Source: Promethearchaeota archaeon
GTDB taxonomy: Archaea; Asgardarchaeota; Lokiarchaeia; Sigyniarchaeales; SOKP01
DNA: 48,823 nucleotides
Reading direction: 5' to 3'
Assembly (NCBI GenBank): GCA_013375475.1
Contig: JABXKD010000018.1
Location: 306 to 49,128 of the forward strand
Below the pieces are notes generated by a model that searched no databases, was not told the DNA's origin, and saw nothing but the letters and a program-made list of their open reading frames with translations. The position numbers and the translations under genes were made by a program. Position 1 is the stretch's first letter, and every line of letters begins with the position of its first letter. Shown here piece by piece: positions 2,276-7,590 of this stretch.

Positions 2276-4465
2276 TTACCAAGAAAGTCCTTTAATAAAT
2301 CGAAGATCATTAATTAATTTGTTAGCTTCATGTGTAGGAACTTCAAGAAAGGCGTGAAATGTATTTTGCCAGAACGCTCGTCCCGATGTACTGGAGCGAA
2401 TATCTTCCGCAAACTTAATTGAATTTCTTACGGGAATAAGGATATCGATAATTGCTTGGTAATCTTTTTCTTGATCAACATTTTTAATTTTAGCAGAATA
2501 TTTCGAGAGAAGGGAAAGCGCATTTTTAATATAATCTGGTGGTATTTGAATAATGGTATGATATATCGGTTCAAGAAGGATTAGTTCGGCTTGATTTAAA
2601 GCCATTTTGATGGCATCGTAGAACATTGTGGATAATTCATTAAAGGAGTTTTCTTCATCTAACTTTACAATTTTTAACTCTTCAATTTTAATTTTTATTC
2701 CTGTGAGTTTTTCCCCACATAAAAATCCACTAGAAAGAATCTTTCCAATAACTTCAGTAATTATTTCCTTGTAGCCTTGGTTCAGATCTTCATTCAGATT
2801 GTAAATCACAATATTGTCATTGTCATAGTACATCCAAAAGTCTTGAATTTCGGTCTCTGTTAAATTAGTATATTCTTTCAATAATTCCTTTAATCTTGCT
2901 TTGGGTTTAATTGCTTTATAATCATGAGTTTGAAAAAACTTGGCTGTTTTTTCATTTAATCTCTCTAGTTTAATTTTAAGAGAGTTTTTATAGATCGGCG
3001 ATTCAATAGATACTATAGATGAACTATGTCTACAAGATTCTTTAAAAACTGCACGAGGGGCCGATATTGAAACGTTAATACCTCGTTTCTCAATCTCGTT
3101 TGCAGTTATTTCTAAATGTAATGGTCCCACACCAGATAGCAAAAATTCGCCATTTTCTTCGTTAATTTCGAATCTTAAATTTGGGTCTTCGATCAATAAG
3201 TCTTCAATCAATTCTTTCATTTTATCTAATTCTCGTAAATATTCGGGTTCGATTGAAACTGTGACAACGGGTGTAGACATATATTTAACATCTTCAAAGG
3301 GGATCATCTCGCCTGCAAATTCTGTGTCTATAATCGTCTCACCACTTTGAATTCGTTTCAATCCTTCGATTGCTACAATGTTTCCAACCGGTACATATTC
3401 GACTTGTTCTCTCCTCTGCCCCATAAATATAGCCGTTTTTCTAATCGTGTCAGTATTATTTTCTCTTAATAAGAATACTTCCTTTTTCATAGAACACTTC
3501 CCAGAAAAAATCCTTCCAGTTCCGACTAAACTATGTTTATCTGCTTGTACTTTACTTAAGCAAATAATTAGAGGTCCCTCAGGATCACAATTGATCATTG
3601 CTTTTCCTATTTCTGAATTTAAATCCCCATCCCATATTTTACCAATTCTATATTTCTGTGCTTCTATAGGGTTGGGAAGGTGATCAACAACCATCTCTAA
3701 AATGGCGTGATGAACCGGAAAATAAAGCGCTAAATCAGAGTAACTTTCTTTAGTGTAAGTCTCTTTTTTATATCGGGCTCTAATATCTGAAAACTTTAAA
3801 TCATTGTTCTCTAAAAGATTTAGTGTAAAGCCCCACTTGTGGAGGGCTGAACCGAATGCGACGTTTCCATCTGCAGGAGATACTTGCCATTCTGTTTTAA
3901 ACGGTTTATCTGCATACCTTTTAACAAGCGTATTAAAATCTTTAATGATACGAGTATATTTCTTTCTTATTTGATCGTCTGTTAACTTTAATTCCCTGAT
4001 AAGACGATCTACTTTGTTAATATAAAGCACAGGCTTTACACCTTCTTGAAGAGCTTGTTTGATTACAGTCTCAGATTGAGTAATTATCTCCTCTACAGCG
4101 TCAACAACAACTATTACACCATCAATTAATCTTAAAGCTCGAGTAACTTTCCCACTAAAATCTAAGTGACCGGGTGTATCAACAAGGTTTATTAGAAAAG
4201 GATCGTGAGTTTCAAGTGATTTTTCGTAATATAACGAAATGTTGGTAGATTTCATTGTAATCCCACGCTTTTGTTCTTCCTCTAAATAATCTAAAGCACG
4301 CGCCTCACCTGCTAAATCTGGTGATAATAATCCTGCTTCACTTAAAAGCGAATCTGATAGCGTAGTTTTACCGTGATCTATATGTCCGACAAAACCAATG
4401 TTTCTAATATTCTCAGTTTTTTCCATCATATTCAGAATTTCTGAGATCTCCTTTCTACGAGGCAT
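2276..4465 (-). CDS. Elongation factor 2 paralog (aEF-2p type) lacking the diphthamide HRG motif
   Basis: Intact G motifs GHIDHGKTT, RGIT, DTPGH and NKVD, with EF-G/EF-2 domain layout. The domain IV loop reads KIVKLDEENSFNEL instead of the canonical ..DAIHRG.. Confidence 0.9.
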   Translation of the reverse strand: MPRRKEISEILNMMEKTENIRNIGFVGHIDHGKTTLSDSLLSEAGLLSPDLAGEARALDYLEEEQKRGITMKSTNISLYYEKSLETHDPFLINLVDTPGHLDFSGKVTRALRLIDGVIVVVDAVEEIITQSETVIKQALQEGVKPVLYINKVDRLIRELKLTDDQIRKKYTRIIKDFNTLVKRYADKPFKTEWQVSPADGNVAFGSALHKWGFTLNLLENNDLKFSDIRARYKKETYTKESYSDLALYFPVHHAILEMVVDHLPNPIEAQKYRIGKIWDGDLNSEIGKAMINCDPEGPLIICLSKVQADKHSLVGTGRIFSGKCSMKKEVFLLRENNTDTIRKTAIFMGQRREQVEYVPVGNIVAIEGLKRIQSGETIIDTEFAGEMIPFEDVKYMSTPVVTVSIEPEYLRELDKMKELIEDLLIEDPNLRFEINEENGEFLLSGVGPLHLEITANEIEKRGINVSISAPRAVFKESCRHSSSIVSIESPIYKNSLKIKLERLNEKTAKFFQTHDYKAIKPKARLKELLKEYTNLTETEIQDFWMYYDNDNIVIYNLNEDLNQGYKEIITEVIGKILSSGFLCGEKLTGIKIKIEELKIVKLDEENSFNELSTMFYDAIKMALNQAELILLEPIYHTIIQIPPDYIKNALSLLSKYSAKIKNVDQEKDYQAIIDILIPVRNSIKFAEDIRSSTSGRAFWQNTFHAFLEVPTHEANKLINDLRFIKGLSW

Positions 4466-4557
4466 CTTTACTTTTTTCTCTTGTAAAATGATAATTTTAT
4501 ATTATTTAACCATGATTGATTTGATTAAAATTTAAGGATTATTTGAAATTAATAGGA

Positions 4558-4663
4558 GCGGGAAATGAAAAATCTCATTACTCAAGATCTTCTTCATTAA
4601 GTTAAGCAGACGCTTAACTCGTCAGGTGGGTCAGAGAATTCATTGAAAATATCTATCTCCCGC
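4558..4663 (-). ncRNA. Candidate box C/D guide sRNA; predicted target tRNA-Leu(CAA) C34
   Basis: Terminal stem GCGGGAGAU/AUUUCCCGC; C-like AUGAAUU; 11-nt guide; D' CUGA; hairpin GUUAAGC-GUCU-GCUUAAC; C' AUGAAGA; 12-nt guide AGAUCUUGAGUA; D-like AUGA. Confidence 0.7.
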
Positions 4664-4681
4664 ATAATTAACTAATTACTA

Positions 4682-5317
4682 TTATAAATTTACATCGCCA
4701 TCTACTATAACAAGTCTACCAGCAATGCTCAATTTTTTATCACAAAACAATTCAATTGCCTTTGGGAAGATTTTATGCTCCCATTCTAATACTCGTGATC
4801 CTAAAGTAGCCTCTGTGTCTGTATCATATACCGGAACACATTTTTGAATAATAATTGGTCCATGATCCGATTCAACATCAACGAAATGAACTGTGCATCC
4901 AGAAACTTTTGCTCCGTATTCTAATACATCTCTATGTGCATGCAACCCTTTAAATGCGGGTAGTAGAGCAGGATGAATGTTCATTATGTTCCCATTAAAT
5001 GCATTGATAAGGTTCTTGCTTATTAACCTCATATATCCTACTAAGACTATTAAATCACAATTATATTTTTTCAAAACTTTTATCATCCTTTCATCGTATT
5101 CCTCTCTTGGGAGGTGAAGAAACTTATCAGATTCAATTAATTCATACGGAATATTGTGATTTTTTGCTCGTTCCATGCAAAATGCGCCAGCTTTATTACA
5201 AATAAGTACTTCCACACTTGCTTTAGTTTTTAAAATGCCATCTTCACATGACTTTATGATAGCTTCTAAATTTGAACCAGAACCACTAGCGATCGCGCCA
5301 ATTTTTAATTTTGCCAT
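4682..5317 (-). CDS. purN: Phosphoribosylglycinamide formyltransferase
   Basis: SGSGSNL, GYMR, NIHPALLPAFKG, GCTVHFV..D.GPII and EHKIFP motifs. Confidence 0.95.
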   Translation of the reverse strand: MAKLKIGAIASGSGSNLEAIIKSCEDGILKTKASVEVLICNKAGAFCMERAKNHNIPYELIESDKFLHLPREEYDERMIKVLKKYNCDLIVLVGYMRLISKNLINAFNGNIMNIHPALLPAFKGLHAHRDVLEYGAKVSGCTVHFVDVESDHGPIIIQKCVPVYDTDTEATLGSRVLEWEHKIFPKAIELFCDKKLSIAGRLVIVDGDVNL

Positions 5318-5679: not shown

Positions 5680-7590
5680 ATGAGTTTTGAAGGAGAATTA
5701 CAAAGAATTAAAGAAGAAATTATCAAATATCTCCCACCTGAGATAGAGGTAAAAAAAATTGAGTTTGAGGGTCCAGAAATAGCAGTTTATTCTGAAAATA
5801 CTAATCTAGAATCAATAGAAAGTTCAGAAGTGTTAAAGGAACTCGCAAAATCTATGAGGAAAAGGGTAGTTTTTCGGTGGAATGTAGAAAAAAGGAAAGA
5901 TCCATCTGAGACAGAAGATTATATTAGAAATTTAATTAGTGAAGATGCGGAAATTTCAGAGATTGAGTTCGATCATACCCGTGGCGAGGTAATTATAGAA
6001 TCGGGCAAGCCTGGATTAGTAATTGGCAAGAAAGGAGTGAATTTAAAAGAGATTAGGATGAATACTTTTTGGCAGCCAAAGACCATTAGAACCCCTCCAT
6101 TAGCTTCAAGAACTATTAGTTTAATTAGACAAATGTTGACCAAAGAACGACAGAATCAAAAAGATATTCTTCTTAATATTGGAAAGAGAATTCACAGACC
6201 TGCTCTTTTTAACGATTTAGACATTCGTTTAACTTCATTAGGAGGTTTTAGGGAGGTTGGCAGGTCATGTATTTTAATGCAAACAAAAGACAGTAATGTT
6301 CTGTTAGATTGTGGTTTGAATATTGGAAACAAGAATGATCAGTTTCCATACTTTGATGTTCCAGAATTCTCAATAAGAGATTTGGACGCCGTTATTATAT
6401 CTCACGCTCACTTGGATCATTGTGGTATGGTTCCGTATTTATTTAAGTATGGATATAGAGGGCCAGTATATTGCACCCTTCCCACTCGCAATCTTTCAAC
6501 CATGTTACAGTTGGATTTTGTCCAGATATGTGAAAAAGAGGGTGTTCCAATGCCCTATTCAAAAATGGATGTAAAAAATACGGTACTTCATACGATACCT
6601 CTTTCGTGGGGGAAAGTTACGGATATCGCTCCAGATATTAAATTGACTCTTCACAATTCCGGACACATACTAGGCTCTTCACTTGTTCATCTACATTTTG
6701 GGAAAGGTGGATTTAACTTTATTTACACGGGCGATATGAAGTACCAAAAGACTCGATTGCTCGAAAAAGCTGCTGTGAAATTCCCTAGGGTTGAAGCTCT
6801 GCTTGTAGAATCTACTTATGGCGGACCGCAAGATAGAATTCCCAGTAGGCAAGATTCCGAGAGAGAACTTAGACAAATTTTAACCTCAACGATTAGGCGT
6901 GGCGGTAAAGTTCTTATCCCTGTGTTAGCAGTAGGTAGGGCACAGGAGCTCATAATTGTCTTGGAGGAACTCATTTCTAAGGGTATCATTGATCAAGTTC
7001 CTATTTTTCTAGATGGTTTGATCTCAGAAGCGACTGCGATCCACACCGCAAATCCTGATTTTCTTAGCTCTGATTTAAGAGAAAAGATATTACACCAAGG
7101 AAAAAATCCTTTTTTGAGTGAATTCTTTACTACAGTCTCAGGTCACGATGAAAGAAACGATGTTATTATGGGTGGACCTTGTATAATTTTGGCGACGAGC
7201 GGTATGTTAATTGGTGGCCCATCAGTGCAGTACTTAAAAGCTTTAGCAGAAGACAAAAACAACTCTCTAATTTTCGTGTCTTATCAAGTGAACGGCACTT
7301 TGGGTTCAAGAATACAACGTGGATTCCGTGAAATTCAATACACGAACCCTAAAGGGAGAACTCAACTCGTAAGATTAAACTTAAATGTGTTTACGCTAGA
7401 AGGATTTAGCGGTCACTCCTCAAGAAGTCAAATATCTCAATTCTTACGCAGAATTCAACCCAAACCAAAGTTGATTATAACAAACCATGGAGAAGAAAGT
7501 AAATGCGTTAGTTTATCAACAATGATTCATAAAAAATTAAGAAAAGCAACCAAGAGTCCTAAAAACAGAGAGACTATACTCTTAAAATAG
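5680..7590 (+). CDS. KH-domain beta-CASP ribonuclease aCPSF1 (FttA transcription termination factor)
   Basis: N-terminal KH domains (KPGLVIGKKG), GGFREVGRS, SHAHLDH, GHILGS, ESTYGG, FSGHS and NHGE motifs; 636 aa. Confidence 0.95.
   Translation: MSFEGELQRIKEEIIKYLPPEIEVKKIEFEGPEIAVYSENTNLESIESSEVLKELAKSMRKRVVFRWNVEKRKDPSETEDYIRNLISEDAEISEIEFDHTRGEVIIESGKPGLVIGKKGVNLKEIRMNTFWQPKTIRTPPLASRTISLIRQMLTKERQNQKDILLNIGKRIHRPALFNDLDIRLTSLGGFREVGRSCILMQTKDSNVLLDCGLNIGNKNDQFPYFDVPEFSIRDLDAVIISHAHLDHCGMVPYLFKYGYRGPVYCTLPTRNLSTMLQLDFVQICEKEGVPMPYSKMDVKNTVLHTIPLSWGKVTDIAPDIKLTLHNSGHILGSSLVHLHFGKGGFNFIYTGDMKYQKTRLLEKAAVKFPRVEALLVESTYGGPQDRIPSRQDSERELRQILTSTIRRGGKVLIPVLAVGRAQELIIVLEELISKGIIDQVPIFLDGLISEATAIHTANPDFLSSDLREKILHQGKNPFLSEFFTTVSGHDERNDVIMGGPCIILATSGMLIGGPSVQYLKALAEDKNNSLIFVSYQVNGTLGSRIQRGFREIQYTNPKGRTQLVRLNLNVFTLEGFSGHSSRSQISQFLRRIQPKPKLIITNHGEESKCVSLSTMIHKKLRKATKSPKNRETILLK

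Follow-up and report, generated by a model that had tools for sequence, protein, structure and literature searches.

A conserved Asgard RNA predicted to guide wobble methylation of tRNA-Leu(CAA)

What is the function of a 106-nt intergenic element of an Asgard archaeon that lies between two protein genes and carries words resembling the boxes of archaeal guide RNAs? The element is part of a 48,823-nt stretch of contig JABXKD010000018.1 (the window), from a Promethearchaeota archaeon of the order Sigyniarchaeales; Promethearchaeota and Promethearchaeia are formal names of the Asgard/Loki lineage according to the portion of PMC11316595 available to us. The source genome is called G000 here, and RNA coordinates are read on the minus strand. 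The original prediction, made from the letters of the window, had proposed a box C/D guide RNA that methylates the wobble nucleotide C34 of tRNA-Leu(CAA). Comparison with relatives suggests that the element is probably a trans-acting box C/D guide small RNA (sRNA) targeting this nucleotide, with its second guide directed to the intron of tRNA-Met.

Conservation and box C/D anatomy

Within the genus, blastn recovered the element from 32 of 36 genomes, with identities of 71-83%. When 30 genus loci were aligned, two blocks were invariant, CUCUGACCCA-N-CUGA and AUGA(A/U)GA-N-GAUCUUGAGU-N-(A/U)UGA, and the hairpin between them varied through compensatory substitutions. A covariance model built from 29 genus sequences (R1) matched 121 of the 151 genomes of the order, in nearly all of them only once: 109/131 in family f1, 11/14 in f2, 0/1 in f3 and 0/4 in f4. 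Three complete genomes, G044, G050 and G055, are among those matched. The original prediction had pointed to covariation in relatives as a check, and it was indeed found: across 57 members from both f1 and f2, all 22 modelled pairs showed changes on both sides, and the internal boxes and the stems were conserved. Paired cells made up 87.6% of this alignment, against 67.8% after shuffling (a value of 87.6% was reached in 0 of 500 shuffles) and at most 59% when the partners were slid, the alignment being fitted to R1 itself, which favours such an outcome. The helices of the terminal stem (helices 1 and 2) were paired in 90-96% of the cells and again changed on both sides.

The energy of a single fold is moderately unusual and nearly the same on either strand (z = -3.5 for the minus and -3.75 for the plus strand), thus the single-sequence view settles nothing and the case rests on conservation. 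Reverse-strand scores with R1 were about 70-100 bits lower; because of this, of the G.U pairs in the stems and of box words that fit the minus strand only, we take the minus strand to be the functional one. All together, the comparative evidence indicates that the element is a conserved, structured, single-copy RNA across the order, where its length ranges from 88 to 136 nt.

Read from 4663 to 4558, the RNA has the layout GCGGGAGAUAGAUAUUUUCA-AUGAAUU-CUCUGACCCAC-CUGA-C-(9-bp hairpin)-A-AUGAAGA-AGAUCUUGAGUA-AUGA-GAUUUUUCAUUUCCCGC (Table 1). The motifs named in the original prediction all lie where it had placed them, and the box C/D architecture that it proposed is borne out by the family; its internal hairpin of 7 bp turned out to have 9. 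The internal pair of boxes has the form expected of C′ and D′ (Table 1), and seven members carry a perfect AUGAUGA or GUGAUGA as box C′. The spacer between D′ and C′ measures 12-48 nt, and its hairpin would act as the canonical stem of the internal kink-turn (K-turn). Spacing also fits a guide RNA: exactly 12 nt separate C′ from D in all 57 members, and 11-12 nt separate C from D′, with a 1-nt insertion in one member. Genes for the proteins of such a particle are present in G000, where fibrillarin and Nop5 are adjacent and two L7Ae-family genes were found.

The terminal boxes are more variable. Box D mostly reads (A/U)UGA. In the window, AUGAAUU and AUGA can form tandem G.A/A.G pairs, and the compensating A-U pairs that the original prediction saw around them do exist in G000; they are, however, peculiar to it, most relatives having the 5′ AAUGA as part of an 11-bp terminal stem, GCGGGAAAUGA/UCAUUUCCCGC. 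Nine of the 57 members have a box C without GA and a D-like box GC(G/U/A)A, with G-C pairs in place of the K-turn. In some lineages (family members L095, L096, L140, L150-L155, L157 and L158) the C-like box reads AUG(C/U)GC and the D-like box GC(G/U/A)A, and both guides are invariant; there the terminal K-turn seems to have been replaced by G-C pairs.

A compact form of the same RNA was found outside the order. A scan of one genome per species gave many chance bacterial matches and is not a basis for distribution; among the matches listed, at least six Bathyarchaeia contigs hold both guides in a compact canonical C/D RNA, GUGAUGA-(4 nt)-UCUGACCCUU-CUGA-(~12 nt)-GUGAUGU-AGAUCUUGAGUG-YNGA. The terminal stem of this form is short, and a TTAAATA box precedes the RNA by about 30 nt. 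One Bathyarchaeia copy aligned end to end with the Rfam model snoPyro_CD at 23.4 bits, for a threshold of 45. The matches listed also include a few metagenome-assembled genomes (MAGs) of other lineages. A contig of Candidatus Asgardarchaeum abyssi (L293) carries a tRNA, the signal recognition particle RNA and the C/D sRNA in a row (471-1200). The identical sequence also appears in a record assigned to a Spirochaetes MAG (L171 equals L165), which suggests that a contig was mis-binned.

Three properties of the RNA weigh against a box C/D guide. Archaeal C/D sRNAs usually measure about 50-70 nt and have a short D′-C′ loop, and the members in the order are about twice that size. The terminal boxes depart strongly from consensus: box D is CUGA in 2/57 members, and box C has lost its GA in 9/57. 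Finally, a search of Rfam, which the original prediction had recommended, matched the element to no family, either at E values up to 10 or at the gathering threshold. Together with a plus strand that folds about equally well, the deviant terminal boxes and the empty Rfam search would suit another structured RNA, or an RNA of the plus strand, whose box-like words arose by chance in A+T-rich DNA. We regard this as highly improbable: the C′/D′ pair is canonical and conserved at its exact 12-nt guide spacing, the reverse strand scores far lower and would turn the G.U pairs into A.C, and the Bathyarchaeia form has the consensus boxes GUGAUGA, CUGA, GUGAUGU and YNGA and, in one copy, aligns below threshold with a known C/D family.

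Candidate tRNA targets of the two guides

The core of the D guide, GAUCUUGAGU, occupies positions 2-11 counted from the D-like box and is invariant in 57/57 members, whereas positions 1 and 12 vary freely and lie outside the pairing with tRNA. In relatives this core is the perfect 10-bp complement of nucleotides A31-C40 of tRNA-Leu(CAA). Counted from the box, C34 faces position 5 (N+5), as the original prediction had it; the proposed pairing with anticodon loop and 3′ stem thus holds for the core, and the two outermost positions of the guide do not pair. The tRNA-Leu(CAA) genes of six genomes (G032, G025, G042, G046, G159 and G157) contain the complement, ACUCAAGAUC, with a 10/10 match. ARAGORN called Leu(CAA) without extra intron in the first four, where the anticodon region reads GGACUCAAGAUC; these are four of the nine sequences examined with this program, four others being of a two-intron type and one (G006) a different tRNA, which was dropped. 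The other two genomes are a Candidatus Asgardarchaeum MAG and a Bathyarchaeia MAG; among Bathyarchaeia the 10-mer was found in 1/3 genomes, all of them small MAGs.

In G000, an ungapped target screen covering 36 tRNA matches, one archaeal 16S rRNA and contaminant rRNAs gave as the best match of the D guide a Leu-type class II tRNA gene with two introns (C234:9751-9910, locus L034:101-260). Its anticodon region reads GGAUUCAAGAUC, and the target stretch AUUCAAGAUC forms ten pairs with the guide, including one G.U, with C34 at guide position 5. By homology, splicing of the extra intron would yield C32 or U32, either of which pairs with the guide G. One of the introns of this gene lies near nt 32/33 and the other at the canonical site; relatives G032 and G025 do not have the first. 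ARAGORN labels the gene Lys(UUU), a mislabel that we attribute to its two introns.

An antisense element of 10-12 nt upstream of a D box, a tRNA target and a target nucleotide at N+5 are all found with the D guide. Energetics in one genome would hardly establish the pairing, as 5% of shuffled D guides reach an equally stable partner in G000; the weight of the argument comes from the invariance, across genomes, of exactly the ten positions that pair. A mechanism of known kind may be proposed, in which the canonical C′/D′ pair and the degenerate terminal C/D pair would be bound by L7Ae, Nop5 and fibrillarin. The D guide would pair with A31-C40 of tRNA-Leu(CAA), precursor or mature, and fibrillarin would then methylate C34 (Cm34), as the complementarity suggests.

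For the D′ guide, the original prediction had considered a D-loop-like target, maybe in the same tRNA. No such target emerged; instead, the invariant D′ core UCUGACCC is complementary to GGGUCAGA, a motif that an elongator-type tRNA(CAU) gene carries in the loop of its intron. A scan of the non-coding DNA of G000 for the D′ complement returned one exact 9-mer outside the sRNA gene, in the 41-nt intron of the tRNA(CAU) gene C225:4593-4709 (minus strand). This gene is not the initiator, which has three G-C pairs in the anticodon stem and lies on contig C12; the label elongator-type tRNA-Met is used here for a gene in which Met and Ile2 are not separable. The motif GGGUCAGA occupies the intron hairpin loop in 18/18 aligned orthologues from five genera, and the rest of the intron varies. 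The intron is inserted after nt 32 or after nt 37, and in both layouts the motif lies about 13 nt from the anticodon. In this gene and its orthologues (L109-L126), both positions, with the same loop motif, occur among genomes of the same genus, an apparent case of intron relocation.

Across the order, the pattern CTCATAA-N5-40-GGGTCAGA was present in 92/151 genomes, against 5 for a reversed-pattern control. The opposite order of the two words was present in 31/151 (control 11), of which 23 read as tRNA-Met, none of them among the 92. Combined, and allowing for a few of the 92 that do not look like tRNA, about 112-115 of the 151 genomes carry the intron motif by our reading. In families f3 and f4 both the sRNA and the motif are absent (0/5 each). 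Outside the order, the tRNA-Met(CAU) genes of 3/3 Bathyarchaeia genomes have a canonical intron that contains A(A)GGGUCAGA.

Next to the invariant core, guide and intron vary together to some extent. In Bathyarchaeia, an intron AA goes with UU at guide positions 2-1; most Loki-type genomes combine AA in the guide with UU or AU in the intron. In a tally made by hand over 37 genomes, to which about a dozen further same-genus genomes with A facing U were not added, a U at guide position 2 went with an intron A in 5/5 genomes (three Bathyarchaeia, G044 and G104), and of the 32 genomes with an A at this position, 23 have U in the intron, 7 have A and 2 have C. Position 2 of the guide thus appears to covary with the intron, perhaps through three independent switches, related genomes not being independent cases.

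Other targets of the D′ guide were considered. The only D-loop-like match, in a tRNA on contig C9, is mismatched at guide position 3. The T-arm of tRNA-Leu(CAA) pairs in G000, but judged by eye the T-loop of relatives varies and the guide is constant. In the 16S rRNA, no ungapped match reaches 8 bp. A 23S site, UGGGUUAGA, is present in 4/4 23S genes of the same genus and in 0/5 from other families; since the guide is invariant across families, we rejected this site as the conserved target. The 10-mer TGGGTCAGAG gave, across the genus, mostly matches of the sRNA to itself and a conserved coding site, and the pattern GGAYTCAAGATC and the bare 8-mer, looked for in five genomes, were too unspecific to count. 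Contig C263 of G000 has the order 16S, tRNA-Ile(GAU), tRNA-Ala(UGC), 23S, a bacterial spacer layout. With the archaeal model, the 23S of this contig reaches 1829 bits and those of relatives about 2550, and the contig is probably a contaminant.

Several results speak against the assignment of one or the other guide. In G000, the exact 12-mer proposed as the target of the D guide is absent outside the sRNA gene itself, and the exact 11-mer proposed for the D′ guide was found only in the sRNA gene and in one coding site; the Leu-type gene does pair with the D guide over ten positions. Among shuffled D′ guides, 29% reach an equally stable partner in G000, and another G000 tRNA scores slightly above the tRNA(CAU) intron if a bulge is allowed. 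In the D′ duplex, N+5 falls on an intronic G, which has no obvious use. Guide position 2 does not pair with the intron in 9 of the 32 genomes that have A there, and the core guide and target blocks never vary, hence they have no covariation of their own.

The D guide might be real and the D′ guide an orphan, or one with another target. Its match to the intron would then be a coincidence, and the loop motif would be maintained by needs of the pre-tRNA itself, for instance splicing or an alternative fold. The energetics of a single genome do not single out the intron. Part of the motif, CAGAC, is similar to CCAGAC, the 5′ strand of the anticodon stem, and tRNA-targeting sRNAs often have one orphan guide, in the sections of PMC7994747 at hand. 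Moreover, the archaeal 23S rRNA was not found in the G000 assembly, so that the rRNA target screen is incomplete there. We nevertheless consider this explanation unlikely, if worth keeping in mind. Motif and guide are invariant in two families and again in Bathyarchaeia, in an otherwise variable intron, a U at guide position 2 consistently faces an intron A, and the clades without the sRNA are also without the motif. The intron is the only other non-coding exact 9-mer in G000, the 16S rRNA offers no match, and the near-match in 23S is limited to one genus.

If the D′ guide does address the tRNA-Met precursor, it would pair over 8-10 bp with the intron hairpin loop of the elongator-type pre-tRNA(CAU). 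The role that we favour is a docking one, in which the D′ duplex would bring the small ribonucleoprotein (sRNP) to intron-containing pre-tRNA-Met and might help the D guide to methylate C34 of this tRNA too; alternatively, the D′ guide would only methylate or chaperone the intron. Docking is favoured because the D guide matches tRNA-Met at 8/10 positions (A31-A35 and A38-C40) and because a search of G000 for a separate guide to C34 of tRNA-Met gave no other convincing 10-mer guide with a D-like box. Against it, U36 and A37 are mismatched. No guide of the RNA is complementary without interruption to the anticodon loop of tRNA-Met and the first part of its intron so as to place C34 at N+5. In solved C/D ribonucleoprotein structures, a substrate strand coming out of one guide duplex does so at the K-turn from which the other duplex starts. 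With a linker of some 13 nt, both guides could hold one pre-tRNA in either intron layout. That a single sRNP clamps pre-tRNA-Met in this way, with D′ on the intron loop and D on the anticodon loop, and that C34 becomes methylated, is a speculative and rather doubtful proposal. If true, the tRNA-Met intron would have been retained from Bathyarchaeia to Asgard archaea as a docking site for C34 modification, and a guide that matches tRNA-Leu(CAA) perfectly would methylate C34 of tRNA-Met.

Genomic setting and expression

Table 1. Parts of the sRNA and its surroundings in the window; counts refer to the 57-member alignment.
Feature	Position	Strand	Basis or remark
Whole sRNA, 106 nt	4558..4663	-	terminal-stem ends; covariance model R1 matched over full length (1-103)
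Terminal stem, outer part GCGGGA/UCCCGC	4663-4658 with 4563-4558	-	sequence
Terminal stem, 5′ arm GCGGGAGAUAGA	4652..4663	-	pairs with 4558-4568
Degenerate box C, AUGAAUU	4637..4643	-	UGA in 46/57, GA in 48/57
D′ guide CUCUGACCCAC	4626..4636	-	invariant core UCUGACCC = 4635-4628, in 56/57
Box D′, CUGA	4622..4625	-	CUGA in 43/57, NNGA in 56/57
9-bp hairpin between D′ and C′, closing the C′/D′ K-turn	4599..4620	-	fold; compensatory changes (helices 4-5)
Box C′, AUGAAGA	4591..4597	-	NUGANGA in 55/57
D guide AGAUCUUGAGUA, 12 nt	4579..4590	-	invariant core GAUCUUGAGU = 4589-4580, in 57/57
Degenerate box D, AUGA	4575..4578	-	GA-ending in 50/57, CUGA in 2/57
Terminal stem, 3′ arm UCAUUUCCCGC	4558..4568	-	alignment and covariance
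TATA-like TTTATAAT, overlapping the formyltransferase stop codon, ~23 nt before the stem	4681..4688	-	genus alignment
PurN-like formyltransferase gene, upstream	4682..5317	-	Pfam Formyl_trans_N
EF-2-type GTPase gene, downstream	2276..4465	-	Pfam GTP_EFTU, EFG_III, EFG_C

The neighbourhood of the sRNA raises the question whether it acts in trans at all. A co-oriented EF-2-type gene lies directly downstream in 9/9 Loki-type loci examined, eight from families f1 and f2 and one from G160 (linkage loci: window 2276-4663, L288-L292, L085, L086, L004 and L294). The gap between the two is about 93 nt in G000 and about 1.6 kb in G088. In family f2, a Shine-Dalgarno-like GGUG(A/G) run and an ATG follow within about 25-40 nt of the terminal stem, and this proximity means that the RNA may be cut from the EF-2 leader. 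A TATA-like word at about 23 nt upstream was seen in 22/30 genus sequences, which in A+T-rich DNA is weak evidence.

This arrangement could reflect a cis-acting element of the EF-2 mRNA leader, for example an L7Ae-bound K-turn that controls translation or processing, the complementarity to tRNA being secondary. The 9/9 linkage and the f2 run with its ATG agree with such a role, and L7Ae-dependent translational control has been reported in archaea, judging from the extract of PMC5539422 available to us. We think this improbable: in 3/3 Bathyarchaeia loci the same RNA is found away from EF-2 and has its own TTAAATA-type box, about 1.6 kb separates the two in G088, and the most strongly constrained parts are the two guide blocks rather than the K-turns. 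Moreover, a location in a leader is compatible with action in trans, many archaeal C/D sRNAs being cotranscribed with their neighbours in the part of PMC7994747 that we could use.

Public RNA data show neither transcription nor silence of the sRNA. Three RNA runs contained a small fraction of the sequence words looked for. One metatranscriptome contig of a relative spans the sRNA, and two other runs cover only the neighbouring genes. As evidence of expression the spanning contig is itself open to objection, since it gives neither strand nor ends and DNA carry-over is possible.

Two further features of the window lie close by. A sub-threshold match to the Rfam family SNORD42 at 4390-4435 of the minus strand (21.7 bits for a threshold of 39) falls inside the EF-2 coding start, and we take it to be due to chance. 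A divergent gene at 5680-7590 of the plus strand encodes KH, metallo-beta-lactamase and beta-CASP domains and is a transcription termination factor of the FttA/aCPSF1 type.

Relation to known guide systems

On the sequence evidence, this RNA, which is widespread in one Asgard order, is best described as an enlarged version of an already known type of guide RNA. So far, C/D-guided wobble methylation of tRNAs has been described in Euryarchaeota and, for tRNA-Met, in humans. Our literature search found no description of Asgard C/D sRNAs; nor did it bring up the link between the second guide of this RNA and a tRNA intron, within a coverage that did not extend to the original descriptions of the Pyrococcus and Haloferax guides. 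The present family would add a single-copy, order-wide Asgard member whose tRNA target is clear and whose architecture is enlarged. It would also give an invariant 8-nt loop motif of a tRNA intron a testable reason, namely that it matches a guide RNA, and this bears on the purpose of tRNA introns.

The predicted function is itself of a known kind. In Pyrococcus, C/D guides have been predicted for C34 of tRNA-Leu(CAA), tRNA-Met and tRNA-Trp, as stated in the sections of PMC7994747 and PMC7668247 available to us. According to the same sections, the Leu(CAA) guide of Clouet-d'Orval et al. (2001) would perform the same reaction, with C34 at N+5. The RNA described here differs in its 88-136 nt, its D′-C′ hairpin, its long terminal stem and its degenerate terminal C/D motif, and also in distribution, being found in Asgard archaea and Bathyarchaeia while the Pyrococcus guide is found in Thermococcales; the two are likened by the descriptions in those sections and not by sequence. 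With respect to Rfam RF00095 (snoPyro_CD), the Bathyarchaeia copy mentioned above covers positions 1-58 of the model, and the RNA of the window itself gives no match. Bacteria also make Cm34 in tRNA-Leu(CAA), through TrmL, which in the excerpt of PMC4033218 at our disposal is a stand-alone SPOUT methyltransferase that uses no guide RNA.

For tRNA-Met, the nearest parallel is euryarchaeal. There, Cm34 is C/D-guided, and the guide pairs in part with the intron, so that methylation precedes splicing (PMC2584109). Like the RNA of the present study, Haloferax sR-tMet and Pyrococcus sR49 are trans-acting C/D sRNAs that pair with the pre-tRNA-Met intron, and the halobacterial forms of sR-tMet likewise have degenerate boxes and a long D′-C′ spacer (PMC2584109). 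In sR-tMet and sR49, however, a single guide pairs without a break with the anticodon loop and the first part of the intron (PMC2584109). In our RNA the guide predicted for the intron is a separate one, whose pairing falls entirely within the intron loop at about 13 nt from the anticodon, and the guide facing C34 fits tRNA-Met at only 8/10 positions. The intron pairing typical of such guides is thus found here, in Loki-type and Bathyarchaeia genomes, as complementarity.

The C/D RNA in the tRNA-Trp intron of Haloferax and Pyrococcus also links a tRNA intron to C/D-guided Cm34, with both guides on one pre-tRNA. The intron itself serves as the guide in that system, whereas in ours it would be targeted or used for docking. 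Human SNORD97 and SCARNA97 are C/D RNAs whose particles methylate C34 of elongator tRNA-Met, and they carry a direct antisense element to its anticodon arm; this comparison is made by description, from the parts of PMC6601510 available to us. The Asgard family described here may also bear on the relation between the archaeal guide system for tRNA-Met Cm34 and the eukaryotic one.

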